A stretch of DNA of 64,000 bases from Candidatus Sulfomarinibacteraceae bacterium (lineage in GTDB: Bacteria; Acidobacteriota; Thermoanaerobaculia; Thermoanaerobaculales; Sulfomarinibacteraceae): the NCBI GenBank assembly GCA_963796455.1, contig CAWCLO010000003.1, positions 224,001-288,000 of the forward strand, read 5' to 3'. A program made the position numbers and the translations under genes. The notes beneath the pieces were generated by a model. The model saw only the letters and a program-made list of their open reading frames with translations. It had not been told where the DNA came from and ran no database searches. Below, in pieces: positions 32,152 to 47,934 of this stretch; position 1 is the first letter of the stretch; every line of letters begins with the position of its first letter.

Positions 32152-34088
32152 ACGAGGGACGACTCGTGTGGTACCGCGTCGCGGATCTGGATGAACTGCC
32201 CGAAGGACGCGTCAAAACCGTCACCGCCGGCCGCGAGAGCATCGCCCTGACCCATTTCGAAGGAGAATATGCGGCCCTGCTCAATGCCTGCCCCCACCAG
32301 GGTGGGCCATTGGGTGAGGGATCCATCGAAGACGGCTGGCTTCGATGCCCCTGGCACGGCTGGGACTTTCATCCATGCACCGGTAAACCACCCGGCGGTT
32401 ATGACGACGGCGTGCCGATCTTTCCGGTCGAAATCCGTGACGACGGGATCTATGTCGGGATCGAGGAAGAAACCACCCGTGAAAGGACAGTCGCGGACGT
32501 CATGGTCGAAACCATGGTCGAGTGGGGTGTCAGCCACGTTTTCGGCATGGTGGGACACTCGAATCTCGGTCTCGCCGATGCATTTCGAAACCAGGAGGAG
32601 GCCGGCCGATTGAACTACATCGGCATCCGCCACGAGGGCGCTGCCTCCTTTGCCGCTTCGGCCTATGCAAAACTGAGCGGGCGACCGGCGGCTTGCTTTT
32701 CCATCGCCGGGCCGGGTGCCACAAACCTCTTGACCGGTCTGTGGGACGCCAAGATGGACCGGGTTCCGGTGCTCGCCCTGACCGGCCAGGTAGACACCCA
32801 GGTCCTCGGGCCGGGCGCTTTCCAGGAGTGCGACCTCGCAGCGGCCTTTGCTCCGGTGGCAACTTGGAGCCAGACCGTGCTCGATGGCAGCCGCCACGCC
32901 GAGCTGATGTCGTTGGCGCTCAAACACGCGATCGACGAACGAAATGTGGCTCACCTGGTCTTCCCCGACGAGGTCCAGGTGCTACCGGCCGACGGAATCG
33001 AGCCGCAGGCGCCCACCGGCCGTCTGGCAGAGCGCGAGATCAGCCCGCCCGCAGCAGTGTTGGATCGGGCGCTCGAAATGCTGGCGGCGGCCAAACGACC
33101 GGTCATCATCGTCGGCCATGGGGCCAAAGGTCAGATGGAATCGGTGATCGCACTGGCCGAGAAACTCGGAGCTCCCGTCGTGACCACGTTCAAGGGCAAG
33201 GGCTTGATCTCGGATCACCACCCTCTGGGATGCGGCGTTCTCGGACGGTCCGGCACGCCGGTAGCCAGCTGGTTCATGAATGAAAGCGATCTACTGCTGG
33301 TCTTTGGGGCGTCGTTCTCGAACCACACCGGCATCACCGAGAAGAAACCGATCATCCACGTCGACTTCGACCCTCTCGCCCTCGGCCGCAAGCACGCCGT
33401 GGATCTCCCGGTCTTCGGGCACATCGGGATGACCGCCAATCTGCTCTCGGCGGTACTCGTGCAACCGGCCACCGATGATCGCAAAAGTGAAATCGCCGAA
33501 CGGTGGCGTCTGTGGCGCGAAGAGAAGACGAGTCGGATGCAGGATGAGCTCGGCAACGGAGTCAGTTCAGCGACGGTCTTTGACTCGATGACCCGTCTCG
33601 TGCCCACGAACGCCGTGATCGCCGTCGATGTCGGCAACAACACCTATTCGTTCGGCCGCTATTTCGAGTGCACCGATCAGTCGGTTCTGATGTCCGGCTA
33701 CCTCGGTTCGATCGGTTTCGGCTATCCGGCGGCCATCGGCGCCTGGGCTGCCGCCCCGGATCGACCGATCATCGCAGTCACCGGCGACGGAGGCTTCGCA
33801 CAGTACATGGCCGAGGTGACCACCGCCGCCAGACACCGGATGAACATCACCCATGTGCTGCTCAACAACTCCCAACTCGGCAAGATCTCCAAAGAACAGC
33901 GAGCCGCAAATTACCCCGTCTGGCAGACCAGCCTCGTCAACCCGGACTTCGCTGCCTACGTGACGAGCTGTGGCGGCCTCGGGATCAGGGTCGAGGCAAA
34001 ATCGGAGCTCGATGAAGCCCTCGAGAGGGCCCTCGCCCACGATGGTCCCGCGACGGTGGAGGTCATCACGGACCCCGAGCTGATCTGA
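32148..34088 (+). CDS. Rieske [2Fe-2S] + ThDP-dependent (pyruvate oxidase/AHAS-like) enzyme fusion
   Basis: CPHQG...CPWHGW Rieske motif, IRHEGAASFAA, GPGATN, GDGG...LLNN ThDP motif. Confidence 0.88.
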   Translation: MNEGRLVWYRVADLDELPEGRVKTVTAGRESIALTHFEGEYAALLNACPHQGGPLGEGSIEDGWLRCPWHGWDFHPCTGKPPGGYDDGVPIFPVEIRDDGIYVGIEEETTRERTVADVMVETMVEWGVSHVFGMVGHSNLGLADAFRNQEEAGRLNYIGIRHEGAASFAASAYAKLSGRPAACFSIAGPGATNLLTGLWDAKMDRVPVLALTGQVDTQVLGPGAFQECDLAAAFAPVATWSQTVLDGSRHAELMSLALKHAIDERNVAHLVFPDEVQVLPADGIEPQAPTGRLAEREISPPAAVLDRALEMLAAAKRPVIIVGHGAKGQMESVIALAEKLGAPVVTTFKGKGLISDHHPLGCGVLGRSGTPVASWFMNESDLLLVFGASFSNHTGITEKKPIIHVDFDPLALGRKHAVDLPVFGHIGMTANLLSAVLVQPATDDRKSEIAERWRLWREEKTSRMQDELGNGVSSATVFDSMTRLVPTNAVIAVDVGNNTYSFGRYFECTDQSVLMSGYLGSIGFGYPAAIGAWAAAPDRPIIAVTGDGGFAQYMAEVTTAARHRMNITHVLLNNSQLGKISKEQRAANYPVWQTSLVNPDFAAYVTSCGGLGIRVEAKSELDEALERALAHDGPATVEVITDPELI

Positions 34089-34124
34089 GCAAGGGAACGG
34101 GTGCGGTGGAGCAGAGGGGCTCGA

Positions 34125-34880
34125 TGCTAGATACTGGATGCTAGATGCTGGAACACTCTTGTCCAAGACAGAGTCTCGGATAGTTCAGGGACAGCGTCAG
34201 TGAGCAGGGGTCAGCGCCAGCGTTCAGTCGTCAGCGACAGATATCAGCGATCAGCGGCAGGGACAGCGAACAGCACTCACTTCTTCGGGTTCAAGAGCCG
34301 CCAGGTCATTGCACGGACCTGATCGAAGGCCATCATCGCTTTACTGGCTCCATTTCGACTGATCGCCCCGGCGTGGGCGAGGAGCTCCAAGTGGCTGTCG
34401 ACCTCTTTCGCGGAAGCGTAGGCGATTCTCCAATGGTTCGACCGGTCTCTACCGACTCGGCCGTGCCCTTCTGCCAGATTCGCAGGGACCGAACTCGCCG
34501 ACCGGATCACCTGATCGGCTATGGACTTCAGCGGAGCTGGAACCCTCATCACGATCTTGATCGCGATTCCTGCTGCTTCGAGGGCTTTCGAGTGGGCGAC
34601 GAGGTTGGTGTTCGTGGCGGCTGAGGACATGGTCACGTCCGGGTCGTTCATGCCCATTCCCACAAGCCGGTGTGGTGGCCGATGTCAAGGATGCCCTGCA
34701 CCCTGCCTGTCCTTGACATCGGCCGCCCACCGGCTACCCCTTCTGTTGAACGACCCGGAGGTGACCACTTCGTCGCCTGTACCCCCGACCGCTGCTGCTG
34801 CTCCCCGTCGCTGACGGTGTCCCTGTTCGCTGTTGCCTGTCGCTGACGCTGGACACTGTCGCTGCCGCTGCAATTCGGGA
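34125..34880 (-). mobile_element. Four-helix-bundle gene cassette, copy 1
   Basis: Homologous over gene and both flanks to 46700-47452, in opposite orientation. Mobility is inferred from the duplication. Confidence 0.7.
34277..34630 (-). CDS. Four-helix-bundle protein (23S rRNA IVP / TIGR02436-like)
   Basis: DQVIRSASSVPANLAEGHGR and RIAYASAKEV family motifs; 117 aa. Confidence 0.88.
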   Translation of the reverse strand: MSSAATNTNLVAHSKALEAAGIAIKIVMRVPAPLKSIADQVIRSASSVPANLAEGHGRVGRDRSNHWRIAYASAKEVDSHLELLAHAGAISRNGASKAMMAFDQVRAMTWRLLNPKK

Positions 34881-35002
34881 TCGGGATCCCGCTCCCGAAA
34901 AAGAGAAGGGGAGAATCGCAACGGCAGCTTCGATCAAATCTCCTTGATCGAACCATTTTTTGGCCATGAATCAGATGTACTCTTAAGCTTGAGGAGATAG
35001 GA

Positions 35003-36049
35003 ATGGGCGAGAAAAAGCTTCGGCTGGCATTGATATTCGGAGGGCGTTCGCGCGAGCACGAAGTGAGCGTTGTGTCGGCCCGATCGGTTGATCGAGCCCT
35101 CGATCGAGACCGTTACGAGGTCGTTCCCATGGCGATCGATCGCAGGGGTCTGTGGACGGCACCGGAGGTGGCGGCCCGGATTCTCGAAGACGCTCCCGAC
35201 CGCACCGACAGGGTCATCTCCTTCGAAGGTCTGCACCGGCTCGACCCCCGACTTCTCGCAGAGGACTTCGATGTCGCGTTTCCGGTGCTCCATGGCCCCT
35301 ATGGTGAAGACGGCACGATTCAGGGCCTCTTCGAAATGCTCGATCTCCCCTTTGTCGGCTGCGACACCGCCGCCTCTGCAGTGTGTATGGACAAGATCTT
35401 CTGCAAGAACATGCTCGCCCGGGCATCGATCCCGACGCCACCCTGGGAGGAAATCGACCGAGATCGTTGGGCATTTGATAAGGGTCCGTATATCGAACGC
35501 TGTCTGGCGCTCGGTCTTCCTCTCTTCGTCAAACCGGCACGACTGGGCTCGTCGGTTGGGATCAGCAAAGTCTGCGACGAAAACTCGTTGGCGGCGGCGA
35601 TCGATATCGCCTTCGAACACGGCCGGCGGGTTCTCGTGGAACAGGGGGTCGCGGCGCGCGAAATCGAGATTGCCGTCCTCGGGAACAACGATCCCCGGGC
35701 ATCGGTGCCGGGTGAGATCGTTCCCGGTAACGATTTTTACGACTACAACGACAAATATGTCGACTCTTCATGTCAATTGTTGGCGCCCGCGCCCCTGGAT
35801 GAGCTCACTTCGGTCCGCGCACAGGAGCTGGCGACCCGGGTTTTCACCCTCCTTGGATGCTCAGGGATGGCGCGCGTGGATCTCTTTCTCGAACCCAACG
35901 GGGACCGCTTGTGGGTCAACGAGGTCAACACGATTCCCGGTTTCACCTCGATCTCGATGTTTCCACGGCTCTGGGGCTTGTCGGGGATCGAGTATCCGGC
36001 CCTTTTGAACGAGTTGGTCGATCTCGCGCTCGAGCGCAAAGGCTCCTAG
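35003..36049 (+). CDS. ddl: D-alanine--D-alanine ligase
   Basis: FGGRSREHEVS, HGPYGEDG, GSSVG, FYDYNDKY, EVNTIPG. Confidence 0.96.
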   Translation: MGEKKLRLALIFGGRSREHEVSVVSARSVDRALDRDRYEVVPMAIDRRGLWTAPEVAARILEDAPDRTDRVISFEGLHRLDPRLLAEDFDVAFPVLHGPYGEDGTIQGLFEMLDLPFVGCDTAASAVCMDKIFCKNMLARASIPTPPWEEIDRDRWAFDKGPYIERCLALGLPLFVKPARLGSSVGISKVCDENSLAAAIDIAFEHGRRVLVEQGVAAREIEIAVLGNNDPRASVPGEIVPGNDFYDYNDKYVDSSCQLLAPAPLDELTSVRAQELATRVFTLLGCSGMARVDLFLEPNGDRLWVNEVNTIPGFTSISMFPRLWGLSGIEYPALLNELVDLALERKGS

Positions 36050-36206
36050 CGGCCCCCGTCCGTTCCCGAAAGGGAGAAAGGGAGGGGAAAGGGAGAGGGC
36101 CCCACCACTCGATTCTGGATACTCGATGCTGGATGCTGCCACCGCTCCCATCCCAAAGGGAGAACCACCCGGCACCGATTTCTCCTGATGGAAACGACGC
36201 CCCCCG

Positions 36207-36328
36207 ATGTCATCCTGAGCGGAGCCCCCCAGGGGCGGAGTCGAAGGATCTATGAGACGGACTGAAACGCCCGTGAACCGCAGATCCTTCGACTGCGGCC
36301 GCCGAAAGGCGCTCCCTCAGGATGACAT
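36207..36328. repeat. REP/MITE-like palindromic element, copy C
   Basis: Terminal IR ATGTCATCCTGAG/CTCAGGATGACAT and the same inner IR as copies A and B. Confidence 0.92.
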
Positions 36329-36527
36329 CTTGAACGATCGTTCCGGTCCCGATCCCGCTCCCGATCCCGTATGGGGCTGACCGCACCCCAGGGTTGAGGG
36401 AGCGTTCGCTATCGCTATCGCTATCGGAATCGCTATCGAACGGCTGCGGTGGATTCCGTTCCTGTAAGGGGGAAAGGGAGAAAGGGAGAACCGTACCGGA
36501 GGCGTCGTTCGTGATAAGGAGCCGGGT

Positions 36528-36712
36528 CTCCTCTGCTCCTCTGCTCCTCTGCTCCTCTGCTCCTCTGCTCTCTCTGCTCCTCTGCTCCTCTGCTCCTCTG
36601 CTCCTCTGCTCCTCTGCTCCTCTGCTCCTCTGCTCCTCTGCTCCTCTGCTCCTCTGCTCCTCTGCTCCTCTGCTCCTCTGCTCCTCTGCTCCTCTGCTCC
36701 TCTGCTCCTCTG
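36528..36712. repeat. Octamer tandem array (CTCCTCTG) x23
   Basis: 22 perfect units plus one 9-nt variant at 36568-36576. Confidence 0.97.
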
Positions 36713-36886
36713 CTTCAACCGCTCGCATCCGATACCCGGATGCAGTAGGATCACGGGGCACACAGAGTGTCCGGAAAATGCCGCGGTTTGGGGGTTGACC
36801 TCCGCCGCCACAGGCACTATCTTCCGCGCTTGTGAAATCTTTCTCTTTTAGATTTCAGTCTGCGCAAACAACAGAGGAGCCGAAGC

Positions 36887-39151
36887 ATGAAGAAGAAGAT
36901 TACCCGCGAAGAAGCGCTCGCGTACCACACCGGCAAACGCCACGGCAAGACCGAGGTCGTCGCCACCAAACCGTGCATCACGCAGCGTGATCTTTCGCTC
37001 GCCTACACCCCCGGCGTGGCCGAACCCTGCCTTGAAATCGCCCGCGACCCCGAACTTGTCTACGAGTACACCAACAAGGGCAATCTGGTGGCCGTGGTTT
37101 CGAACGGCACCGCCGTCCTCGGTCTCGGCGATATCGGGCCGATGGCCAGCAAACCGGTCATGGAAGGCAAAGGCGTCCTTTTCAAACGATTTGCCGACAT
37201 CGATGTTTTCGATATCGAGGTCGACACCAAAGATTCGCAGGAAATCATCCGTTTTTGTGAGCTCCTGGCACCGACTCTCGGCGGTATCAACCTCGAGGAC
37301 ATCGGCGCACCCGAGTGCTTCGAGATCGAAGAAAAGCTCAAAAAGAGCTGCAATATCCCGGTCTTCCACGACGACCAGCACGGCACGGCCATCATTTCCG
37401 GCGCCGCCCTCGTCAACGCGCTCGAGATCGCGGAAAAGAAAATCGAGGACGTCAAGGTCGTGTTTTCGGGAGCCGGCGCGGCGGGCATCGCCTGTGCGGC
37501 ATTTTATGTGTCGCTCGGAGTCAAACAGGAGAACCTCCTGATGGTGGACTCCAAGGGCGTGATCTACAAGGGCCGCACCAAGGGCATGAACAAGTACAAG
37601 GAGCGATTTGCTGTCGAGACCGATGCCAGAACCCTGGCTGACGCCATGGACGGTGCCGATGTCTTCGCCGGTGTATCGGTGAAGGGCCTCGTGACCAAGG
37701 AGATGGTTGCGACCATGGCCGCCGACCCGATCATTTTTGCCATGGCCAACCCCGATCCGGAGATCTTGCCCGAAGACGCCTTCGAGGTGCGCTCTGACAT
37801 CATCATGGCCACCGGTCGATCGGATTATCCGAACCAGGTCAACAACGTGCTCGGGTTTCCGTTCATTTTCCGCGGTGCGCTTGATGTTGCGGCCTCCGGC
37901 ATCAACGAAAAGATGAAGCTGGCAGCCGCCCGCGCCCTCGCCCATCTCGCCAAGGAAGACGTGCCCGATTCGGTGATGCGGGCCTACGGCGGTCAAAAGA
38001 TCCGTTTTGGTCGCGAATACCTCATTCCCAAACCCTTCGATTACCGGGTTCTTCTGTGGGAAGCTCCCGCCGTCGCCGAGGCGGCCATCGAAACGGGAGT
38101 GGCCCGCAAGCCGTATTCTTCGAAGGAAGACTACGTCCGCGAGTTGGAAAACCGCCTGTCGCGGACCCGACGCGTGATGCACAGCGTTTTTGACGAGGCG
38201 GTCGCCGATCCAAAAAGGATCGTTTTCCCCGAGGGGGAGAACGAAAAGATCGTTCGCGCGGCCAAAATCCTCGCCGACGAGGGCATTTGCAACCCCGTTC
38301 TTCTCGGATCCACCGACAAGGTCCGCAAATTGCTCGAACTGCACGAGGTACCGAGCGACGCCGTCGAGGTCATCGATCCGACCGCCAACGGTGACGGTGA
38401 GGTATTTGCAGAGGTGCTGACCAGAATGCGCTGGCGCAACGGCGTCACCCTCGATGTCGCCCGCAAGCTGATGCGCGACCCGGTCTACTACGGCAATATG
38501 ATGGTGCAACAGAAAAAAGCCGATGGTCTGATTGCAGGACTCACCATGTCCTACCCGGAGACGATCCGCCCGGCACTCCAAATTCACAAAACCAGAGAGG
38601 GAATCGGCCGTGCCGCCGGGCTCTATCTGTTGCTCTTCGAAGATCGGATGCTGTTCATCGCCGACACGACCGTCAACCAGAACCCGACCGCGGAAGAACT
38701 GGCGGAGATCGCCTTTTTGTCGAGCCAGGCCGCCGAGCACTATTTCGGGGTCACCCCGCGGGTCGCGATGTTGTCCTACTCCAACTTCGGCTCCAATATC
38801 GACCACCGCTCGCAGAAGGTCCGAGACGCTGTCGCCATCGCCGAAAAACGGTGGCCCGATCTCGTGATCGAGGGCGAGATGCAGGCCGATACCGCAATCG
38901 AGCCCGGGATCGCCAGGGATGCATTCCCGCTGTCTCGGATCCAGGGTGACGCCAATATCCTGGTGTGCCCCGATCTCGAATCGGCCAATATCGCCTACAA
39001 GCTGCTGTGGAGGCTCGGCAAGGTCGAGGCCATCGGTCCGATCCTGACCGGCATCGACGCTGCGGTCCATATCCTCCAGCGTGGAGTGGATGTCAACGAC
39101 ATCGTCAATGTGGCGGCGCTCTGCGTGCTCAAGGCGCAACGCTGGAATTGA
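36887..39151 (+). CDS. maeB: NADP-dependent malic enzyme with PTA-like domain
   Basis: [41 protein letters not shown]-terminal PTA domain (EGEMQAD). Confidence 0.96.
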
Positions 39152-39193
39152 AAGAGCGGTTTTCCGAGAGGCAATCGACTCAAAAGCGGAGAC

Positions 39194-39218
39194 AAACCCC
39201 GCCCTTACGGGGTTCTTT
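39194..39218 (+). terminator. Possible intrinsic terminator after maeB
   Basis: AACCCCG-CCCTTA-CGGGGTT followed by CTTT. Confidence 0.45.
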
Positions 39219-39379
39219 GGAGGGGCGGATTTTATCCCGCCCACTCAATCTCTCTCTCCGAGTGCCGTTGCGGCCGCTATCCGGATCGGAATGCCTTGCA
39301 CTTCCTGGCTGTTGGAATATCCAGCAAATCCAAACACGGGTCCGGCAAAACTCGGACCCAGGAGATCCTGGAGGGAACC

Positions 39380-39823
39380 ATGCAGGATACTCTCGAAGCA
39401 GTCCTCAACCACAAGGGGTCAACGGTCCTATCCGTCGACCCGAAGGATTCCGTCATGGACGCGGTCCGCAAGATGAACTGCGAAAAAGTGGGCGCTCTGC
39501 TGGTGTGTGTCGAAGGCCGGATGGTCGGGATCTTCACCGAGCGGGACGTTTTGTGCCGGGTCATCGACCCGGGCAGGGACCCTGACGCCACCGAGGTGTC
39601 GGAGGTCATGACATCCGAGGTCATGACGGTTCGATCGAAGACCAGCGTCCACGAAGCGATGGCGATCATCACCGAGAAAAGATGCCGCCACCTGCCGGTG
39701 ATCGACGATGGCACACTCCGTGGGATGGTTTCCAGCGGTGACCTCACGCGATGGGTGAGCCGAAGCCAGGAGGGGCACATCCAGGACTTGATGAACTTCA
39801 TCACGGGCAAATATCCGGGGTGA
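39380..39823 (+). CDS. CBS-pair protein
   Basis: GIFTERD and RHLPV CBS motifs; GGAGGG RBS. Confidence 0.88.
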   Translation: MQDTLEAVLNHKGSTVLSVDPKDSVMDAVRKMNCEKVGALLVCVEGRMVGIFTERDVLCRVIDPGRDPDATEVSEVMTSEVMTVRSKTSVHEAMAIITEKRCRHLPVIDDGTLRGMVSSGDLTRWVSRSQEGHIQDLMNFITGKYPG

Positions 39824-39932
39824 TTTCGGAGTTCGGAGTTCGGAGTTCGGAATTTTCAAAGCCTCGACGGCCGTCACGAATCCAGATTGCGACTGTGATG
39901 CGAATTCTGCGTTCATCTGCGTGATCTGCAGT
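39824..39932. repeat. (CGGAGTT) heptamers plus ATCTGCG 9-mer module
   Basis: cggagttcggagttcggagttcggaatt directly after the stop codon. 39906-39931 is the reverse complement of the module at ~16416-16441. Confidence 0.8.
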
Positions 39933-40021
39933 TTCTCCGCTTTCGTTCGCTCCACAACTTCATGACCCCCAGCGCCGGTGATAGACTTGTAGGCACCAAC
40001 GAAAAGCTCGGAGGAGTTGCC

Positions 40022-40951
40022 ATGAAAGGTGTATGGAAGACGATCACACTCACCATCCTGGTCGCGGTAGTCGCCGCGACGACCCCGGTCCTGGCGCAAG
40101 ACGATGCTGCCGGAGGGCTCCGATTCTCGATCACGGTCTCGCAGTTCGAGAATCAATCCGGCTGGCACGGTCAGTGGGACCTCGGAAACGCCTGGGGCAC
40201 GGTTCTCACCGATATGCTGAACCAGAGCGGCCGATTCATCGTGCTCGGCGAGACGGATATGCGCGGCGCGGCGCTCGACGAACAAGATTTCGCCGCCTCG
40301 GGCAGGACCGCTGGCGGCAAAAAAGCTCCGGCCACGGGCCAGATGACTCCGGCCCAGTTACTGGTCAAGGGGGCCATCACCCACGTCCAGGGCGATACCG
40401 GTGGAGCCGGCGGTGGAATTCGCGTCAAGGGCTTCAAGATCGGTGGTAAAGGCGGTCAGGGCGAGGTCAACGCGACCATCTACATCGTTGATTCCACCAC
40501 CGGCCAGGTGCTGGCTTCCAAGAGCGTCGTCGGCACGAGCAAACGCAAGGGCCTCGGCGTCGGTTACAACACCGGCAGTTGGGGAGCCGCATTCGGGGGC
40601 CACAAAAACGACAACGTGGGGAAGGCGGTCGAGGACGCCTGCGCCGTCGCGGTGGATTTCATGGTCGCCCAACTGCCGAATATTCAGTGGACCGGATCGG
40701 TGGTCCTGGTCAAAGACGGCAAGGTCTATGTCAACCGCGGTGCTCGCGAAGGAGTAGCGGTCGGACAACACTTTTCGGTGGGCGAGGTGGAGATTCTCCG
40801 TGATCCCGACACCGGTGAGGTTTTGGACGAGAGCATGACCCAGCTGGCGGAGTTGAAGGTCGATCAGGTCAAGGAAAAGCTTTCCATCTGTCAGGTGGTC
40901 TCCGGCAAAGCGGCGGCCGTTTCCAAAGGCATGACAATTCACAAATACTGA
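40022..40951 (+). CDS. CsgG/HfaB-family exported protein with C-terminal FlgT-like domain
   Basis: Signal peptide, SGRFIVL, IVDSTTGQVLAS, VYVNRG...DPDTGEVL. Confidence 0.72.
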   Translation: MKGVWKTITLTILVAVVAATTPVLAQDDAAGGLRFSITVSQFENQSGWHGQWDLGNAWGTVLTDMLNQSGRFIVLGETDMRGAALDEQDFAASGRTAGGKKAPATGQMTPAQLLVKGAITHVQGDTGGAGGGIRVKGFKIGGKGGQGEVNATIYIVDSTTGQVLASKSVVGTSKRKGLGVGYNTGSWGAAFGGHKNDNVGKAVEDACAVAVDFMVAQLPNIQWTGSVVLVKDGKVYVNRGAREGVAVGQHFSVGEVEILRDPDTGEVLDESMTQLAELKVDQVKEKLSICQVVSGKAAAVSKGMTIHKY

Positions 40952-40967
40952 GCATTTCATGCGCAGT

Positions 40968-41001
40968 AAAAACCGCGGTGGGCACCCACCGCGGTTTTTT
41001 T
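40968..41001. terminator. Bidirectional-type intrinsic terminator
   Basis: AAAAACCGCGGTGGG-CA-CCCACCGCGGTTTTTTT. Confidence 0.85.
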
Positions 41002-41060
41002 GTTGTCTGCTGAGGTATAATCCGCGACAGAACTACTTTGCGACGAGGGCGTCCAGGACA

Positions 41061-41513
41061 ATGCAACGCGCGACGATTTTTGCTGCGATTCTGATGATAG
41101 GCGGGATTCAGTCCGCCTATTCGCAGGACATTGCCTATCGCGCGGTCGAAAACCCCTTCCAGGACGAATTTGATTATGAAATAAACAGCGAACTCAACCC
41201 CATGGTGGAGATCGACGGGCTTCGACTGACCCGGTTTGCAATTCTGGTCAAAGGCGAGGGCGAGTTCGAAGCCGACAAGGCGACCTCACTGACGGTCGAA
41301 TACGGCGCTCGCAATACCAACCCGGAGTCAGTCAAGGTCTACGTCATCGCCCTCTTGGAGGACGCCGAGGGAGACGCCCTTGATCGCCTCGAATGCGACC
41401 CCACCACGGTCGGCAGAGAACGCCTCAAGGAAGTGAGCCAGAAGTTCAAGCTTCCGGGGAGCGTCCTCGAGGCAACCCGGAAGATCTACCTCTTTGTCGA
41501 GATCGAGCGCTGA
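41061..41513 (+). CDS. Hypothetical exported protein
   Basis: Signal-peptide-like N-terminus; TATAAT at 41016-41021 upstream. Confidence 0.65.
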   Translation: MQRATIFAAILMIGGIQSAYSQDIAYRAVENPFQDEFDYEINSELNPMVEIDGLRLTRFAILVKGEGEFEADKATSLTVEYGARNTNPESVKVYVIALLEDAEGDALDRLECDPTTVGRERLKEVSQKFKLPGSVLEATRKIYLFVEIER

Positions 41514-41523
41514 CCTAAGACCT

Positions 41524-42192
41524 CTACCAGGTGGTCTGACGCCGCAACAAGGCGAGGAACTCCTCACGAACCAGACGATCAGCAAAACACCCGCGTAGAG
41601 CGGAGGTCGTCGTCATGGCACCGGCCTTTTTGACGCCGCGCATCTCAACGCACAGGTGCCGAGCCTCAATGACCACCATCACCCCCTGAGGTTCGAGTTC
41701 TGACCAAAGGAACTCGGCCACCTGTTCGGTCAGTCGTTCCTGGAGTTGCGGGCGCTTGGCAAAGAACTCGAGAATACGCGGCAATTTGGACAACCCGACA
41801 ACTTCGGATTCGGGAATATAGGCAATGTGGGCATGGCCGTAAAAGGGCACGAAATGATGCGCGCACATGGAATAGAAGGGGATCTCCTTTTCAATCACCA
41901 TGTGGTGGTAGCCCTCGTCGTTGGGAAAAGTGGTGACCTTTGGCGCCGCACCCTCCCGAAGTCCGTGGAACATTTCCAGATACATCTTTGCCACTCTTTT
42001 CGGCGTGTCCTCGAAGTTGGGGTCCGAAAGATCGAGGTTGAGCGCCCGCATGACCCCTTCCATGTGGCTCGCCACTGACGAGATGATGCGCTCCTCGTCG
42101 CCGCGAGGGATCGAGTTGTCGCCGTTTGCGGCCGTGTCCTTCGCGCCGTTTTGTTCGTCGCTGTCGATGGATGCGATGTCGGACATTTTCAT
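41524..42192 (-). CDS. folE: GTP cyclohydrolase I
   Basis: DTPKRVAK, SMCAHH, GLSKL, QLQERLT, HLCVEMRGV. Confidence 0.95.
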   Translation of the reverse strand: MKMSDIASIDSDEQNGAKDTAANGDNSIPRGDEERIISSVASHMEGVMRALNLDLSDPNFEDTPKRVAKMYLEMFHGLREGAAPKVTTFPNDEGYHHMVIEKEIPFYSMCAHHFVPFYGHAHIAYIPESEVVGLSKLPRILEFFAKRPQLQERLTEQVAEFLWSELEPQGVMVVIEARHLCVEMRGVKKAGAMTTTSALRGCFADRLVREEFLALLRRQTTW

Positions 42193-42266
42193 ACTCCCTG
42201 TGCATCGGAGAATCGCGCCACAGCCTAGCGTATTCCAGGCCACCCCACCACCCGCCTGCGTCCGTG

Positions 42267-42546
42267 CCCGAATTGCGGCGGCAGCGGCAGTGTTCAGCGG
42301 CAGCGATCTCGTGTAATGACGGCGTGGTCACCTCCGGGTCGTTCAACGGATGAAACAACCGTTGTGGTGTAGGCGTCTCGCCTGCACACCGTGCGGCCGA
42401 GACGGCCGCACCACAAAGGCCGGAACTCCGAAGATGCGGGGGCTGTTCGCTGTCGCTGGCTCCCGTTCGCTGTCGCTGTCCCTGAATGCTGTCCGAGACG
42501 CTGTCTTGGCTATGAACGATCCTGCATCCTGAATTTTGCATCGAGC
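42267..42546 (+). mobile_element. Gene-less version of the four-helix-bundle cassette carrying a REP doublet
   Basis: Shares the left end (CCGAATTGC...TGGTCACCTCCGGGTCGTTCAAC) and right end (GCTGTCCCTGAA.GCTGTCCGAGACGCTGTCTTGG) with the gene-bearing cassettes. Confidence 0.7.
42362..42416. repeat. REP-like inverted doublet (REPIN-like)
   Basis: TGTGGTGTAGGCGTCTCGCCTGCAC faces GTGCGGCCGAGACGGCCGCACCACA; each unit is GTGG plus a hairpin. Confidence 0.75.
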
Positions 42547-42559
42547 ACCGAGCGAGATA

Positions 42560-42775
42560 CGGGCCTCCCTTTCCCCTCTGCCCCTTTTTCCCTCTGCGAG
42601 TTGGTGGATCGATCTGGCCGTCGATAGCGATAGCGATTCCGATAGCGATAGCGATGGGTACTCCGCCCCTCTGCCACGTAGAAGCTCGTTCTCCCTTTCT
42701 CCCTTTCTCCCTTTCTCCCTTTCTCCTCCGCCCCTCTGCCAGACGGAAAGGGATCCAGCATCCAGCATCGAGCGG
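42560..42775. repeat. Composite repeat: GATAGC hexamers, TTTCTCCC octamers, CAGCATC heptamers
   Basis: Same modules as the other mosaics in this window. Confidence 0.8.
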
Positions 42776-42810
42776 CCCGACAGACGGTCGGGTGGTGTAC
42801 CATCCGAAAC

Positions 42811-43656
42811 GTGAACGGCACCCTCCTCATCACCGGCTCGCACGGTCAATTGGGAAGAGCTCTGACCGGGTTATGCCGCAACCGCGGTCTCGATTTTGAA
42901 GCCCGCGATATCGATACCATCGACATCAAAGATGGGGGGGCGATGACCGAATGGATCGAGACCAATCAACCCCCGGCAGTCATCAACTGCGCCGCCTTCA
43001 CAGCCGTCGACGATTGTGAATCCAATCAGGATCTGGCGATGAGGGTAAACGGCGAGGCGGTTGGAACGATTGCCTCGGCGTGTAACTCGATCGGCGCCCG
43101 TCTGGTTCAGATTTCTACCGACTACGTTTTTCCGGGAGACGCCACCGAGCCCTATCTCGAAAGTGATCCGGTCGCCCCGGCCACCGTCTACGGACAAACC
43201 AAGCTGCGCGGCGAAGAATTGGCGATGACTGCCCGCCGCCACCTCGTGGTTCGTACGGCCTGGCTCTACGGTCTCGGCGGTCGAAATTTCGTCGAAGCCA
43301 TCAGGGCACAGATCGAGGGAGGCGCCACTTCACTCAAGGTGGTGTCCGACCAGATCGGGACCCCGACCTTCTGCGGCGACCTCGCCGGGGCAGTCCTCGA
43401 TCTTATCGAAAAGGATGCGTTGGGCATCGTCCACGCCGTCAACGCCGGTATCACTTCATGGCACGGCTTTGCGGTCGAGATCGCCCGCTGCCTCGGCTCC
43501 GATGTCGAGATATCCGCTGTTACGAGCGATCAGTTCCCCAGGGCGGCCCGGCGGCCCGCATACTCCGCCCTCGACACCGGTCGGCTCCGACTGTTGATCG
43601 GGCGATCCATGCCGCCGTGGCAGGACGCTCTCGCACGGTACCTGGCAGAATCATGA
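42811..43656 (+). CDS. rfbD: dTDP-4-dehydrorhamnose reductase
   Basis: ITGSHGQLG, ISTDYVF, YGQTK, DQIGTPT, RRPAYSAL. Confidence 0.93.
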   Translation: MNGTLLITGSHGQLGRALTGLCRNRGLDFEARDIDTIDIKDGGAMTEWIETNQPPAVINCAAFTAVDDCESNQDLAMRVNGEAVGTIASACNSIGARLVQISTDYVFPGDATEPYLESDPVAPATVYGQTKLRGEELAMTARRHLVVRTAWLYGLGGRNFVEAIRAQIEGGATSLKVVSDQIGTPTFCGDLAGAVLDLIEKDALGIVHAVNAGITSWHGFAVEIARCLGSDVEISAVTSDQFPRAARRPAYSALDTGRLRLLIGRSMPPWQDALARYLAES

Positions 43657-44615
43657 GAATTCTCATCACCGGCGCTGCCGGTTTTGTCGGGCCATACCTC
43701 GCACAACACCTTCGTTCGATGGTGCCGAAGGCCGAGATCTGGGGCCTTGTCTGGTCAGATGACGAGCGAAGCGCTCCCGAATTCGTCACTCCCATACCTG
43801 GCGACCTGACCGATCGGCCCTCTTTGTCGCGAGCGATCGAAACGGCTCGACCTGAAATCGTCTTCCATCTCGCGGGGGCCTCATCCGTCGCTTCATCATG
43901 GGACAACCCGGATCTCTTTTTGAAGGTGAACCTGGAAGGCTCCATCAACCTTTTCGAGGCAATACGTGATTCCGGCTGTGATTCGAGGATCGTTTTGGCG
44001 TCCTCGGCAGAGATCTATGGTTCGGTGCCACTCGCCGAGCAACCGATTGTGGAGAATACACCGCTGCAACCCCTTTCACCATACGGTAAGAGCAAGGCTG
44101 CTCAGGACCTGGCGGCGCTGCAGTACTTTCAGGAATTCGGGCTCCAGACAATCCGTCTTCGCCTCTTCCACCACACCGGGCCCGCCCGCCCGCCATTCTT
44201 TGTGGCTTCGAGTTTTGCGCGTCAGATCGCACGCATTGAACAAGGCCTCGACCCTCCAACGCTCTCGGTCGGCAATCTCGATGCGGTGCGCGATTTCTCC
44301 GATGTTCGCGATGTCGCTCGCGCCTATTGGCTCGTCGCCGATCGAGGCGAAGCCGGGGCGGCCTACAACGTATGCTCCAGTCGAGGACGAAGCATGGGTC
44401 AACTTCTCGATATGATGCTCGCCATGACCGCGTCAAAAGTCGAAATCAGCATCGACCCTGATCGGCTTCGAGCCGCTGATATCCCACATCTCGTAGGCGA
44501 CCACACAAGGCTCTCCACCGCGACCGGTTGGCAGCCGGAAATAGCCTTTGAACAAACCCTGGAAGATCTCCTGGACTGGTGGCGAGCAGAGTTGAGAAAC
44601 CACCGCATCGATTGA
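43653..44615 (+). CDS. NDP-sugar epimerase/reductase (Rmd/Gmd-like extended SDR)
   Basis: ITGAAGFVG, SSAEIYG, SPYGKSK, VGNLDAVRDFSDVRD. Confidence 0.88.
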   Translation: MRILITGAAGFVGPYLAQHLRSMVPKAEIWGLVWSDDERSAPEFVTPIPGDLTDRPSLSRAIETARPEIVFHLAGASSVASSWDNPDLFLKVNLEGSINLFEAIRDSGCDSRIVLASSAEIYGSVPLAEQPIVENTPLQPLSPYGKSKAAQDLAALQYFQEFGLQTIRLRLFHHTGPARPPFFVASSFARQIARIEQGLDPPTLSVGNLDAVRDFSDVRDVARAYWLVADRGEAGAAYNVCSSRGRSMGQLLDMMLAMTASKVEISIDPDRLRAADIPHLVGDHTRLSTATGWQPEIAFEQTLEDLLDWWRAELRNHRID

Positions 44616-44662
44616 TTCTTGTACCCTCGACATGACACAGTGCAACGACAGGGAGGACGAAG

Positions 44663-46432
44663 ATGGAAATGGATCGGCGCAACCGGATTGCTCAATGGGT
44701 CTTCGACTCGCGCGCGATTCTCGGACGATTCCATCTGTGGTTGGAAGACGTCGAAATCGAAAGCGAAGGAGTGTCCGAAACGGGCGATATGTCCTTTGTC
44801 GGCGGTTCGTTAGAACGAGCATTTGTGGTTGCGACCGCCGTCACCGCTCTCGGCACCAGGCTCTTTGGACGCTGGGGTGAGGGAGCGGATCTCGACAAGG
44901 CGGGAATCAACCGCGTCAAAAAGGACGCGGATGCGGTCTCGGCCTATGCGCTGTCCGAGGCATTGTGGTATCTCACCCGCAGTCTTCCGGAAAACCACGC
45001 CGTCATGATCTCCCTCGGCGAGGGCCTGATGCCGAAGGCCGGCGAGACTCCCGAAATGGGCTCGAACCCTTTGCTCGGGTTCGGCCGGGTCTATGCGCGG
45101 CCGCAGGTGGCGCGTTTCCTCGACCGAAGGGTCCACCGCCTGGTCAATGATCCGACTTACGAGTGGCCCGAGTTCTGGTTCGATCTCCAGAGTGCCGGCA
45201 TCACCATCTGGGGTGCTGCAGTGGATACTCTGGAAAACACATCCCGATTCGCCAAGGGCAGTCCAACCGGACCGATGACAATTCTTCACCTTTATGACCA
45301 ACCACTCAAGGTGGCACGGCCCTATGAGGGCTACATGGGCAATATCACCCTGCCTCGAGAGGTTGTCGACCAGGCCGCGGATCGATCCATTCTGATCGAC
45401 TATCGAACGCCCCGGGCCCGGGTCATGGAAGCGATCCGGGACACGTATCCTATGATCCGACCCGAAAATGTTCACGTCTGGACTCTGGGAGGACCGAGCC
45501 GCGAAAACCGCCTCTCGAACCTGTGGGCTGAGTGGCAGGAACTCGGCGCTCACCTCGTCGAAGATGGCTGGCCGATGCCCGGCACGAACATCCCGGTTTT
45601 CACCGAATCGGGAACCTACGCGCCGGCTTTTCGTGTCGGCACCTTCGAAGATGAAGACGGCGCCACCCATGTATTCATCTGCGATGGGTATGCGGCATCG
45701 GCGGAAGCCATGCAGGCGGCGAGTCTCGATCCGATCCTCGATCTCTCGACCTCGATGACCCTGTTTTCGTCCAGTTTCAAGGCCCCTGCGGATCGTGAGC
45801 GTGAGGTCATTGCACTGGACCCCGAGGCCGAAGATTTTGCCGATCAACTCGCTGCCACCCTTGAATCAGAGATCGATCCGGCCCTTGCCAGGGAATACAG
45901 CGAGAGCCTTCGCGGCGCTCGCGAAGCCTTGATGCCGGTCGACAAAAAGACGATCACCGCGGACGATTTCTTCCCTCTCAAACAGTGGCGGGTGCTCGCT
46001 CTCGCAGGCTATATGCTGCCCGATCCCTATACCGGCTCGAATGGTGTGGAACAGATCAGCGACGATCGTTTCAGGGTCACGACACGGGCGGCGACCCGCA
46101 ACGGCATGATCAACGTGACCCTCGTTCTTCGACTGATGGAGACGAAGGACCAGATGCAGATGGTTTTTTCACCCCTTCTCGATCGCTTTTATTCGGGTCA
46201 GGACCACACCACACGGGCGGTCAAGATCTCGGATTCAGGCAGGATCAGAAACGAATTGCAGACGTTGGCCTCAGAAGCGATCGAATTCCTGCCGGATGAT
46301 CGTATGTTGGTCAACTTCGGTTTGATCGACGATTCCGTGCTGCCTCCGGACAAGCGTGATCTCATCCGTGAAGTCCTGGTCTGGTACAAGAAGAACCACC
46401 CCACCTGGTTCAAGTGGCTCGAGATGAAATAG
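44663..46432 (+). CDS. Large divergent GlpX/FBPase class II-like protein
   Basis: KKDADAVS, ISLGEG and AVDTLENTSRFAKG resemble GlpX motifs (ADxAA, VIGEG, AVDPLEGT). It is 589 aa, much longer than GlpX. Confidence 0.55.
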   Translation: MEMDRRNRIAQWVFDSRAILGRFHLWLEDVEIESEGVSETGDMSFVGGSLERAFVVATAVTALGTRLFGRWGEGADLDKAGINRVKKDADAVSAYALSEALWYLTRSLPENHAVMISLGEGLMPKAGETPEMGSNPLLGFGRVYARPQVARFLDRRVHRLVNDPTYEWPEFWFDLQSAGITIWGAAVDTLENTSRFAKGSPTGPMTILHLYDQPLKVARPYEGYMGNITLPREVVDQAADRSILIDYRTPRARVMEAIRDTYPMIRPENVHVWTLGGPSRENRLSNLWAEWQELGAHLVEDGWPMPGTNIPVFTESGTYAPAFRVGTFEDEDGATHVFICDGYAASAEAMQAASLDPILDLSTSMTLFSSSFKAPADREREVIALDPEAEDFADQLAATLESEIDPALAREYSESLRGAREALMPVDKKTITADDFFPLKQWRVLALAGYMLPDPYTGSNGVEQISDDRFRVTTRAATRNGMINVTLVLRLMETKDQMQMVFSPLLDRFYSGQDHTTRAVKISDSGRIRNELQTLASEAIEFLPDDRMLVNFGLIDDSVLPPDKRDLIREVLVWYKKNHPTWFKWLEMK

Positions 46433-46860
46433 TCGCTGGATACTCGATGCTGGATACGTCGAGATCGTCAGTCTCGCCACACAATTACCAAATCTCTTCG
46501 ATTGATCTGATCTGCTGATTGTGCACTGTTCCGGTAGCCAAATCGCGAATTAGGAATCGAATATCCAGTATCCAGTATTACTGCTGTCAGAACAGACCGT
46601 CACCTGAAGTTTCCCGCCCGACAACACTTGGTTTACAGGTTGGTTTTTGGCATATCCGGTTGGCGGTTGCCCGTGCCCGCGTCCGCGTCCGCGTCCGCGT
46701 CCGAATTGCAGCGGCAGCGACAGTGTCCAGTGTCAGCGATCAGCGATCAGCGATCAGCGGCAGCGGCAGCGGAGGAGCGGCAGCGGGCGGAGCGGCAGCG
46801 GCAGCGGTCAGGAGTCCAGGCGACGAAGTGGCCACCTCCGGGTCGTTCAACAGAAGGGGT

Positions 46861-46930
46861 AGCCGGTGGGCGGCCGATGTCAAGGACAGGCAGGGTGCAG
46901 GGCATCCTTGACATCGGCCGCCCACCGGCT
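46861..46930. repeat. Perfect 26-bp inverted repeat with 18-nt loop
   Basis: AGCCGGTGGGCGGCCGATGTCAAGGA ... TCCTTGACATCGGCCGCCCACCGGCT. Confidence 0.95.
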
Positions 46931-46964
46931 TGTGGGTATAGGCATGAACGAACCGGAGGTGACC

Positions 46965-47318
46965 ATGTCCTCAGCCGCCACGAACACCAACCTCGTTGCC
47001 CACTCGAAAGCCCTCGAAGCAGCAGGAATCGCGATCAAGCTCGTGATGAGGGTTCCAGCTCCACTGAAGTCCATAGCCGATCAGGTAGTCCGATCGGCGA
47101 GTTCAGTCCCCGCGAACCTGGCAGAAGGGCACGGCCGTTTCGGTAGAGACCGGTTAAACCACTGGAGAATCGCCTACGCCTCGGCGAAAGAGGTCGACAG
47201 CCATTTGCAGCTCCTCGCCCACGCCGGGGCGATCACCCCGAACGGAGCCAGTGAAGCGATGGACGCCTTCGATCAGGTCCGTGCGATGACCTGGCGGCTC
47301 TTGAACCCGAAGGAGTGA
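46965..47318 (+). CDS. Four-helix-bundle protein (23S rRNA IVP / TIGR02436-like)
   Basis: 107/117 aa identical to 34277-34630 by manual comparison; GGAGGT RBS. Confidence 0.88.
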   Translation: MSSAATNTNLVAHSKALEAAGIAIKLVMRVPAPLKSIADQVVRSASSVPANLAEGHGRFGRDRLNHWRIAYASAKEVDSHLQLLAHAGAITPNGASEAMDAFDQVRAMTWRLLNPKE

Positions 47319-47470
47319 GTGCTGTTCGCTGTCCCTGCCGCTGATCGCTGGCGCTGATCACTGTCGCTGCCGCTGACTCCTGTTCGCTGACGCTGTCCCT
47401 GAACGCTGTCCGAGACGCTGTCTTGGACAAGTGTGATCCAGCATCCAGTATCCCCTGGCGGATCGAAGTC

Positions 47471-47875
47471 TCATTTCACCTGAAGAGTTTCGAGCGTCTC
47501 TCGAAGAGTCGGGGTCATTCGTACCGGCCGACCAGTTGTGTTGTCGACGCAGGCAAGAACAGTCATTGCAACAGCTGCCACTTCACCGTCCACCGTCACC
47601 ACGTATTCGAAGGTGAAGGAAGCTCCTCGGATTTCGCCCACCCGCAGCCACACCCTCACATCGCCGTACAACCCCACAGGCCGTTTGAAGTCGATTTCCA
47701 GGCGTTTGACAAAAAACGGCACATCCATCGCCTCGCGTCCGCCAAATCTTTGCAGCCAGACTTCTGATCGCGCCTGTTCGATGTAGCTCGCAAAGACCGC
47801 GTTGTTGACGTGGGCAAAGGCATCCAGATCCCGCCACCGCACCTGAATCGGACATGAAAATGGATAGTCTTTCAT
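47471..47875 (-). CDS. Acyl-CoA thioesterase (4HBT/YbgC hot-dog family)
   Basis: VRWRDLDAFAHVNNAVF motif. Confidence 0.9.
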   Translation of the reverse strand: MKDYPFSCPIQVRWRDLDAFAHVNNAVFASYIEQARSEVWLQRFGGREAMDVPFFVKRLEIDFKRPVGLYGDVRVWLRVGEIRGASFTFEYVVTVDGEVAAVAMTVLACVDNTTGRPVRMTPTLRETLETLQVK

Positions 47876-47934
47876 CTTCGACAGGGTATCAGTCCGAGAA
47901 CAGGATGAGCGACCACGGTGAGCAACCGGGAGCC

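Follow-up and report, generated by a model that had tools for sequence, protein, structure and literature searches.

Two copies of a small PF05635 gene in a 64,000-nucleotide stretch of DNA from an uncultured Acidobacteriota bacterium, referred to here as the window, belong to a family of 247 loci that we regard, with a probability of roughly 0.8, as an IS4-ended mobile insertion cassette that has no transposase, is likely moved in trans and carries a hairpin-guarded PF05635 gene under purifying selection. This assignment rests on the ends of the elements, on their 9-bp target duplications and on an IS4 element of a sister species whose ends match theirs. For a mobile insertion cassette the cargo is unusual, being an IVP gene under purifying selection behind a covarying hairpin.

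Proteins of the PF05635 family occur widely among bacterial genomes, have been described from rRNA intervening sequences (IVS) and share their fold with the protein Avd, and to our knowledge they have neither a known function nor a known way of spreading. A literature search outside subscription journals found no paper on PF05635 genes in transposon-like cassettes, and the hundreds of gene-bearing and related copies described here make both the spread and the role of the family testable.

The two gene-bearing units that the initial annotation had recognised in the window are real, lie inverted to each other and are 88-97% alike over five collinear blocks. These are, for copy 1 versus copy 2, 34245-34672/46923-47350 (428 nt, 92%), 34674-34801/46795-46922 (128 nt, 95%), 34136-34183/47406-47453 (48 nt, 88%), 34840-34878/46701-46739 (39 nt, 97%) and 34183-34222/47365-47404 (40 nt, 90%). 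The likeness of the two proteins, first given as 107 of 117 residues, agrees with 112 of 124 identical overall and 10 mismatches in the last 117 residues, and the hexamer layers of copy 2 with their perfect 17-nt pair are likewise present (inverted repeat of 37 nt, 89%). The boundaries, however, had to be redrawn: copy 2 does not start at 46700 but covers 857 bp from 46579 to 47435, the heptamers taken for its outer layer (46436-46457) sit about 120 nt outside it, and the heptamers that do touch its two ends are in direct rather than inverted orientation. In the following list, the extent of copy 2 and its target duplications come from reading the sequence, its left subterminal arm from a 60-copy consensus and its leader hairpin from covariation.

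46570..46578, no strand assigned: left 9-bp target duplication of copy 2, ATCCAGTAT, within a heptamer array
46579..47435, + strand: copy 2, long-form cassette, complete with both terminal inverted repeats (right end at C3:271435 in the end-repeat scan)
46579..46597, + strand: left terminal inverted repeat of copy 2, degenerate, one base short of the family motif CACTGCTGTCCAAAACAGA
46598..46706, + strand: left subterminal arm (left side only), then a short (GCGTCC)n hexamer run and CCGAATTG
46709..46806, + strand: hexamer array (CAGCGN)n on the left, complementary to that on the right
46828..46966, + strand: leader hairpin of copy 2
46944..47318, + strand: IVP gene (PF05635) of copy 2; the product has 124 aa, or 117 aa if the second ATG (46965) is used
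47322..47404, + strand: right hexamer array (NCGCTG)n of copy 2
47417..47435, + strand: right terminal inverted repeat of copy 2, GCTGTCTTGGACAAGTGTG
47436..47444, no strand assigned: right 9-bp target duplication of copy 2, ATCCAGCAT, 8/9 match to the left one
34154..34890, - strand: copy 1, long form missing both terminal arm and end repeat on the left
34277..34651, - strand: IVP gene of copy 1
42267..42518, + strand: third locus, short form without the gene; left part missing, right end repeat degenerate (42500-42518)
42341..42425, + strand: central hairpin that replaces leader and gene in the short form (third locus), -42.3 kcal/mol

The modules of copy 2 thus run in the order left arm, hexamers, leader, gene and right arm, and those of copy 1 in the order hexamers, leader, gene and right arm; copy 1 keeps its right end repeat (34154-34172, outermost base 34154), a perfect right-type end at C3:258154. 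The third locus had been described as having the same two ends around a swapped cargo. Its right arm is indeed common to copy 2 (42447-42534 versus 47364-47451; 88 nt, 84%), but only part of the left arm is, and while its cargo does differ, the locus is a truncated member of a common gene-less short form. Its 85-nt central hairpin has 89 BLAST matches in the genome, 75 of them within element loci, and a 26-nt core of the short-form hairpin recurs elsewhere on the flanks of a Y1 transposase gene (C1:952424-953291, surrounding the Y1_Tnp match).

The genome, a 5.0-Mb MAG that is 90.5% complete, holds the 247 loci dispersed over all 10 contigs with unrelated flanks, and chance likeness of the units is excluded by this number together with the 557 blastn HSPs; the left-arm module armL1 gives 133 nhmmer matches. 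Among the 40 commonest architectures (233 of 247 loci), 98 include the gene module and 135 do not. Cargo differs between copies, in line with the cargo exchange proposed earlier, being the IVP gene in the long form and a hairpin of 70-85 nt in the short form. The proposed spread between genes is also confirmed, as 245 of 247 loci are intergenic according to a home-made gene caller (3409 genes, 78% of the genome), on which the context figures rest, and as the orthologous site of copy 2 is without the element in nine relatives, where the gap between the flanking genes is 127-714 nt compared to 1038 nt here. Furthermore, a pair of copies from separate contigs shows 99.1% identity over 866 bp, with the likeness ending at the element ends, which points to recent movement. 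Copies are therefore clearly neither confined to the window nor always present in relatives.

The ends of the family are 19-bp terminal inverted repeats. In 60 two-ended elements, the 9-nt flanks are identical in 21 cases and differ by one mismatch in 14 (35/60 with at most one), compared to 3.0 and 6.0 expected from shuffled flank pairing; the other 25 complete elements have at least two flank mismatches, and many copies are without one end. Target duplications are present in both long and short forms and also outside heptamers, for example TCTTTGCGT. Facing ends are spaced 300-799 bp apart in 40 cases and 800-899 bp in 27. The ends of the family also occur in G006: of 69 loci examined from other MAGs, 30 have both ends, and the 9-bp duplications were perfect in 16 cases and had one mismatch in four. 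Metagenome depth in three sediment sets, consisting of short contigs only, was 100-400 for the family and about 3 for the flanks. An internal deletion junction between two GGCCGAT repeats recurs at eight loci. The spread of one dead deleted copy was considered for these and dropped because the eight copies are scattered in the tree, with 8 changes compared to a shuffled mean of 7.9 and at least two origins forced; this tree used about 215 nt and had 216 rows, including about 147 unrelated ones admitted by a loose anchor, with a true clade of 69 rows.

The cassette was correctly judged to be non-autonomous, as no copy contains a transposase. Within the window, the only ORF with a family match between the ends is PF05635, and RVT_1 is absent, again as first described. 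Across the whole genome, no transposase was found between facing ends 1.1-4.1 kb apart or inward of the 116 unpaired ends. The sister species G017, however, has a 1411-bp IS4-family insertion sequence with cassette-type ends, whose right end matches the cassette left end at 18/18 positions and whose left end matches the cassette right end at 19/24, the two elements being alike only in these terminal 18-24 nt. Its 402-aa ORF contains DUF4372 and DDE_Tnp_1, scores 251 bits against NF033592 (IS4 family, cut-off 115) and carries the YREK signature Y-2-R-3-E-6-K on inspection of the sequence; no target duplication surrounds the G017 element itself. Target duplications of the IS4 family are described as about 10 bp long (PMC2266710), a length that the 9-bp duplications of the cassette fit. 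As such, the suggestion of a new kind of cassette system was not sustained, since the family has the signature of a DDE transposon and IS4-type ends.

In mechanistic terms, an IS4 transposase would bind the 19-bp ends, excise or copy the element and insert it with a 9-bp stagger. Transposases of the G017 type have no match in this 90.5% complete genome and occur in one of ten other genus genomes searched, and because of this we can only infer mobilisation in trans; the partner enzyme may have been lost here or be unassembled. Two other genes were considered as partners and rejected, namely the single PF01609 gene of the genome, which is IS5/IS1182-like and has different ends, and its single rve gene, which belongs to an IS481-like element with other ends that is itself inserted into a cassette. 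Similarly, a Tc1-type likeness of the end motif was dropped because Tc1-type elements duplicate TA and not 9 bp.

Assignment of the cargo to PF05635 was upheld by the profile (53.8 bits for copy 1 and 55.8 bits for copy 2, cut-off 33.8), which matches the genome 70 times, 67 of them above the cut-off, and 60 full-length copies are 84-100% identical in amino acids to copy 2 (copy 2 counted). The expected Avd-like fold was recovered too: a four-helix model with a pLDDT of 93.8 matches Avd 4dwl (TM 0.77/0.84, rmsd 1.6 A), 8ub7 (TM 0.77/0.81), and 2gsc and 2rld (TM 0.82-0.85). The IVP protein is clearly under purifying selection, with a dN/dS of 0.14 (1653 pairs, 58 intact copies, median dS 0.33), gene diversity of 0.058, 0.040 and 0.205 at codon positions 1, 2 and 3, and a pN/pS of 0.18 in 29 independent nearest pairs, in which selection before and after insertion is not fully separable. 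Since gene-less forms spread too, movement does not depend on an IVP protein encoded in cis, and its strong conservation is thereby left without an explanation. Likely an Avd-like nucleic-acid binder, it would act on the leader hairpin or the arrays, a tentative proposal and the weakest-supported step of the scheme.

In the leader, an outer stem (46828-46849 with 46944-46966) pairs an anti-Shine-Dalgarno sequence with the Shine-Dalgarno sequence and both ATGs, and encloses an inner palindrome (46860-46886 with 46906-46931). Alignment A1 shows covariation, with 47 pairs, 96.9% paired, 23 of the pairs having double changes, and none of 500 shuffles scored as high. The inner helix has one G-U cell among about 620, and with so few G-U pairs a DNA palindrome is no less fitting than an RNA stem. 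The hairpin likely works at the level of the transcript; there it would mask the ribosome-binding site and could present a double-stranded substrate, but it may instead work as a DNA palindrome. No sigma-70-type promoter or intrinsic terminator was found in 46400-47500, and an Rfam scan of 33500-48500 gave only four sub-threshold chance matches.

A link of the cassette to the local repeat arrays had been raised as a possibility, and it holds: 28 of 60 complete elements adjoin a period-7 array, while such arrays, 764 in number, make up 0.46% of the genome. Heptamer arrays are thus favoured insertion targets of the cassette. In addition, tandem arrays bracket every PF05635 gene examined.

The inner unit, comprising the inverted hexamer arrays, the leader hairpin and the IVP gene, may be an older IVS-type cassette captured between insertion-sequence ends. 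Whether it could be the true mobile unit, with an unknown route that needs the IVP protein and with IS4 ends as one of several vehicles, has to be weighed against the preferred reading, and we consider this improbable. Another MAG carries this core (hexamer arrays, leader and gene, with a protein 84-88% identical) between unrelated ends with duplications of about 8 bp, and 17 of the 22 loci tried had both of these ends; as for a partner of this second end set, G087 has no PF13610 or PF01610 match and one PF01609 gene without those ends. Moreover, all four divergent PF05635 paralogs here are enclosed by inverted arrays, lying 435-500 nt inside them; the arrays have four different units, IS4 ends are absent, and for one paralog the same hexamer unit is kept at the orthologous site in G018 and the gene is missing there in G006 and G003. 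The strong selection on the protein also suits an inner cassette that moves by itself. However, all dated movements in the genome carry IS4-type ends and 9-bp duplications, forms without the gene spread as well, no bare-cassette insertion junction was resolved here, and we know of no strand-transfer chemistry in four-helix bundles. More broadly, the hairpin and IVP unit might be a selfish module that hops between transposon chassis, its protein recognising its own palindrome or arrays, so that rRNA IVS and part of the intergenic 6-8-nt arrays found in bacteria would be its footprints; this idea is doubtful, though not far-fetched.

The conservation of the IVP gene could also mean that the host benefits from having many copies expressed, for example in regulation or defence, and that the cassette is only the vehicle. 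Purifying selection even between nearest copies, the persistence of 58 intact copies despite the median dS of 0.33 and the range of 0 to 54 IVP matches per genome among genus relatives would agree with such a benefit. We nevertheless think it unlikely, given that weak per-copy selection by the host would be expected with about 60 redundant copies, that the start site is sequestered within the conserved hairpin and that the unit has no sigma-70-type promoter; the expression signal is limited to fragments of relatives' IVP genes from a single RNA library.

A fold-back cassette of single-stranded DNA or RNA, which would rely on an HUH (RAYT-type) enzyme or on reverse transcription to move, was the mechanism put forward in the initial annotation, and it now appears very improbable. 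The left and right arms are strongly complementary (about -124 kcal/mol), yet in 24 elements pairing was no better within copies (-123.7 kcal/mol) than between copies (-124.1 kcal/mol; p 0.61), and the long arms thus show no copy-specific pairing when the unit is folded. HUH-type genes do occur elsewhere, with six Y1_Tnp matches in the genome, but only the short-form central hairpin, through the 26-nt core, resembles the repeats flanking one of them. A reverse transcriptase was not found, as RVT_1 matches nothing in the genome. Transposition by HUH enzymes leaves no target duplication and is therefore contradicted by the 9-bp duplications in 35/60 elements, which together with the 19-bp inverted ends form the signature of a DDE transposon. 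In four public runs, made up of short contigs that leave the flanks uncovered, no empty-site, circle or excision junctions were seen. Finally, an old local duplication, homologous recombination or gene conversion without transposition has a negligible probability, for although eight loci have one internal deletion junction in common (which may reflect recurrence or conversion) and some copies have mismatched flanks, it is refuted by 247 dispersed loci on 10/10 contigs with unrelated flanks, by the target duplications and by the empty orthologous site of copy 2 in nine relatives.

Among known systems, the IS4-ended cassette described here is closest in form to MIC231 of Bacillus cereus, reportedly a mobile insertion cassette with IS231/IS4-family ends and a passenger gene. 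Like MIC231 and bacterial MITEs, it has insertion-sequence ends, no internal transposase, a passenger gene and duplications of the family length, and would depend on an enzyme supplied in trans by a partner element. Unlike them, it reaches a far higher copy number (247 loci), its passenger is always one small PF05635 gene with a covarying leader, inverted hexamer arrays and strong selection, the passenger unit also occurs on a second, unrelated end set in another MAG, and the partner was not found in the genome.

IVS of 23S rRNA interrupt the rRNA gene, and RNase III cuts them out of the transcript. Those of Coxiella burnetii (S23p) and Leptospira resemble the cassette in having a PF05635 gene inside inverted repeats able to form a long stem. 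They differ in location, as 245/247 loci here lie between protein genes, and the single 23S gene of this genome (3011 nt compared to a 2925-position model) has no ORF-sized insert. In common with the cassette, ORF-bearing 23S IVS are units of about 0.4-0.9 kb with a sporadic distribution among relatives, and mobility has long been suspected for them, an old idea being that they are remnants of transposition or were once mobile (PMC4990558). The Coxiella ORF is reported as decaying and not expressed, whereas the IVP gene here is intact and selected. Insertion-sequence-type ends and target duplications further set the cassette apart. The idea of IVS mobility lacked a case with clear transposon hallmarks, and the cassette supplies defined ends, duplications and an identifiable partner.

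PF05635 is described as a Pfam family resembling Avd (PMC10053308), and the IVP protein has the same four-helix bundle fold as the Avd of diversity-generating retroelements, but at a sequence identity of 9-11%. No template or variable repeats were seen beside the IVP genes, and the genome is without RVT_1 matches, as noted above. Heptamer repeats of Xanthomonas and Nostoc, tandem 7-nt units near stop codons and often in inverted pairs, are similar to the 764 period-7 arrays of this genome, and their description gives no general connection with mobile elements (Rehm et al., 2015; PMC4692102). Unlike those repeats, the arrays here are favoured targets of the cassette and bracket PF05635 genes, and the finding thereby ties this gene family to short intergenic tandem arrays that had no explanation.

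On the features tested, as judged from sequence, the repeated units in this stretch fit a mobile insertion cassette on IS4-family ends, with mobilisation in trans as the putative route. The cassette has 19-bp inverted ends and occurs as a long form, which carries an IVP gene (PF05635), and as a gene-less short form. The two gene-bearing units seen in the initial annotation are borne out: they are an inverted pair of ~0.75-0.86 kb each with five matching arms (lengths and identities 428 nt, 92%; 128 nt, 95%; 48 nt, 88%; 39 nt, 97%; 40 nt, 90%), each ORF matches PF05635 (53.8 and 55.8 bits; cut-off 33.8), and their proteins are identical at 112/124 positions. The hexamer layers and perfect 17-nt pair described with them were likewise both found. 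The third locus, proposed as a cargo-swapped copy, does share arm sequence with copy 2 (88 nt at 84% on the right, shorter stretches on the left) around different central DNA, but reads as a truncated short form.

Features of the window

32148-34088 (+): 646-aa ORF, a Rieske [2Fe-2S] domain at the N-terminus fused to a thiamine-pyrophosphate enzyme with its N, M and C domains all present; the combination looks uncommon
34154-34890 (-): copy 1, a cassette that has lost its left terminal arm
36406-36439 and 42621-42654: inverted (GATAGC)n arrays
36531-36714: tandem array, (CTCTGCTC)n
42267-42518 (+): third locus, a short form, truncated
42341-42425: central hairpin of the short form, holding the 26-nt core
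42690-42725: tandem array
44663-46432 (+): 589-aa ORF, no Pfam match, ~72% nucleotide identity across the genus
46579-47435 (+): copy 2; target duplication matches at 8/9 positions

Aligned with their flanks, 60 full copies show conservation with a sharp start and stop. One pair of copies, located on separate contigs, shares 99.1% identity across 866 bp, and the identity stops on either side at a 19-bp motif; the two motifs are mutual inverted repeats. In the 60 elements whose two ends are separated by under 1.1 kb, the 9-nt flanks are identical in 21 and differ at one position in 14, compared with 3.0 and 6.0 under shuffled pairing, and duplications occur in both the long (~780-890 bp) and the short (~340-720 bp) form. 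A period-7 tandem array adjoins 28 of these 60 elements, such arrays making up 0.46% of the genome; since 9-bp duplications were also found outside heptamer arrays, the presence of an array on either side does not alone explain them. The pattern AT-N5-AT fits 23 of the 35 good duplications. Cassette copies in a second genome, G006, have the same ends, with both present in 30/69 loci (80 fetched, 11 dropped as shorter than 3 kb) and 16 perfect 9-bp duplications. Furthermore, the genes flanking copy 2 are adjacent in nine relatives, 127-714 nt apart with the IVP gene absent, compared with 1038 nt here, a comparison that indicates insertion and not ancestry at this site.

The genome (5.02 Mb, 10 contigs, 90.5% complete; window at C3:224001-288000) contains 70 PF05635 matches, 67 of them above the cut-off. 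With copy 2 as query, tblastn recovered 60 full-length copies at 84-100% identity (copy 2 included) and ~25 truncated or frameshifted pieces, while blastn with the whole unit gave 557 HSPs. Five module profiles (left arm, left hexamers, leader, gene and right arm) yielded 247 loci; in the 233 belonging to the 40 commonest architectures, the gene module is present in 98 and absent in 135. In 18 relatives from the genus, each genome has between 0 and 54 matches to the protein family; the present genome has 98. According to a home-made gene caller, 245 of the 247 loci are intergenic, and those between convergent (79) and divergent (56) genes are enriched relative to the genome's 572 and 570 of 3357 gaps; tandem gene gaps show no orientation bias (22 copies along the neighbours' direction, 23 opposite). 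In public sediment metagenomes, assembled as short contigs only, the family is a high-depth repeat, and no excision junctions were seen in those contigs.

None of the cassette copies in the genome contains a transposase. Inverted ends together with a duplication of 9 bp are suggestive of a DDE enzyme, and searching the 25 genomes of the genus with PF01609 yielded 24 loci. The single PF01609 gene of this genome has ends unrelated to those of the cassette. One of the 24 loci, in genome G017, is a 1411-bp element with a right end equal to the cassette left end (18/18), and its left end matches the cassette right end at 19/24 positions. Its ORF (NF033592 at 251 bits, cut-off 115; DUF4372 and DDE_Tnp_1; YREK-type motif) is, by these matches, an IS4-family transposase; PMC2266710 puts the duplications of that family at about 10 bp. 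A transposase of this type has no match in the present genome (90.5% complete) and was found in one of the ten other genus genomes searched. IS1380-family elements in G006 and G004 (L146, L150 and L142; 498-aa open frame, NF033539 387 bits) have one end resembling the cassette end motif at 14-15/19 positions, probably by chance.

The genome has six Y1_Tnp matches and one rve gene, the latter in an IS481-like element that is itself inserted into a cassette. This element lies outside the window (L134, C3:11601-14915), within the left hexamer array of its host copy, and has a 382-aa HTH plus rve ORF and its own inverted ends; cassettes are thus themselves insertion targets.

The IVP cargo is not neutral. 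Across 58 intact gene copies, dN/dS is 0.14 at a median dS of 0.33, and diversity at codon positions 1, 2 and 3 is 0.058, 0.040 and 0.205; 29 independent nearest pairs give a pN/pS of 0.18. The protein is modelled as a four-helix bundle (pLDDT 93.8), nearest to 2gsc and 2rld (TM 0.82-0.85) and next to Avd (4dwl; TM 0.77/0.84).

The 140 nt upstream of the gene form a two-part hairpin of 47 pairs, 96.9% paired across 26 sequences from several MAG species. Changes on both sides occur in 23 of these pairs, a count reached by 0/500 shuffles, and pairing falls to 27-44% when the partners are slid. In the outer helix, the Shine-Dalgarno sequence and the two ATGs are paired with a stretch further upstream. 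Of the 24 pairs in the inner helix, 15 covary; it has a single G-U cell, so it could equally well be a DNA palindrome or an RNA stem. Pairing between the long hexamer arms is not copy-specific, within-copy being no better than between-copy. An Rfam search was blank, as were promoter and terminator scans. Nine G006 copies (L051, L066, L070, L071, L077, L079, L084, L085 and L120) keep the outer anti-SD/SD stem and have the inner palindrome swapped for another GC-rich module of ~150 nt, making the leader itself modular.

In the short form, an 85-nt hairpin stands in place of leader and gene. It has 89 matches in the genome, 75 within element loci, and three occurrences of its 26-nt GC-rich core surround a Y1_Tnp (RAYT-like) gene (L140, C1:952424-953291), which suggests a REP-type repeat built into the short form. 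The ends can differ as well. In genome G087 the same core (GCCCGT/CAGCGN arrays, leader, gene and right hexamers; IVP protein at 84-88% amino acid identity) lies between quite different ends, both present in 17/22 loci tried, and the duplications, located in heptamer arrays, are about 8 bp long. Ends of this second type were not found in the present genome, and a search for their partner element found none. In the orthologous gap of copy 2 in G032 (714 nt), a gene-less element of ~450 nt (L129) has ends resembling them. Eight loci share an internal deletion bounded by 7-nt direct repeats; the carriers are scattered in the tree, and recurrence is likelier than the spread of a single dead copy.

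Short tandem arrays are plentiful (3130 by TRF; 579 with a 6-nt period, 764 with a 7-nt period and 573 with an 8-nt period) and often form inverted pairs beside stop codons. One orthologous gap has its own heptamer unit in each relative (GAGTTTT, GAGGAAT, GCTCGAT, CGGATTT) around a GC-rich hairpin. Four divergent PF05635 paralogs (L001-L004; C4:1278094, C1:983149, C9:2726 and C10:733004), 18-28% identical to the cassette protein, each lie within inverted arrays 435-500 nt apart, with a different 6-8-nt unit each and no IS4-type ends. One of them is also found, along with the same hexamer unit, at the orthologous site in G018; in G006 and G003 that site lacks the gene.

As to known systems, an rRNA intervening sequence has the same gene and the same gene-in-hairpin layout as the cassette and was rejected as its identity; the one 23S gene of the genome lacks any insert large enough for an ORF. 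A REP element was similarly rejected. A DGR, whose protein Avd shares its fold with the cassette IVP, was rejected, the genome having no RVT_1 match. No published description of the cassette family was found in the literature searched. This analysis contributes a test of selection on nearest pairs, counts of covarying pairs in the leader, a second chassis for the cassette core and results that speak against the deleted form having spread.
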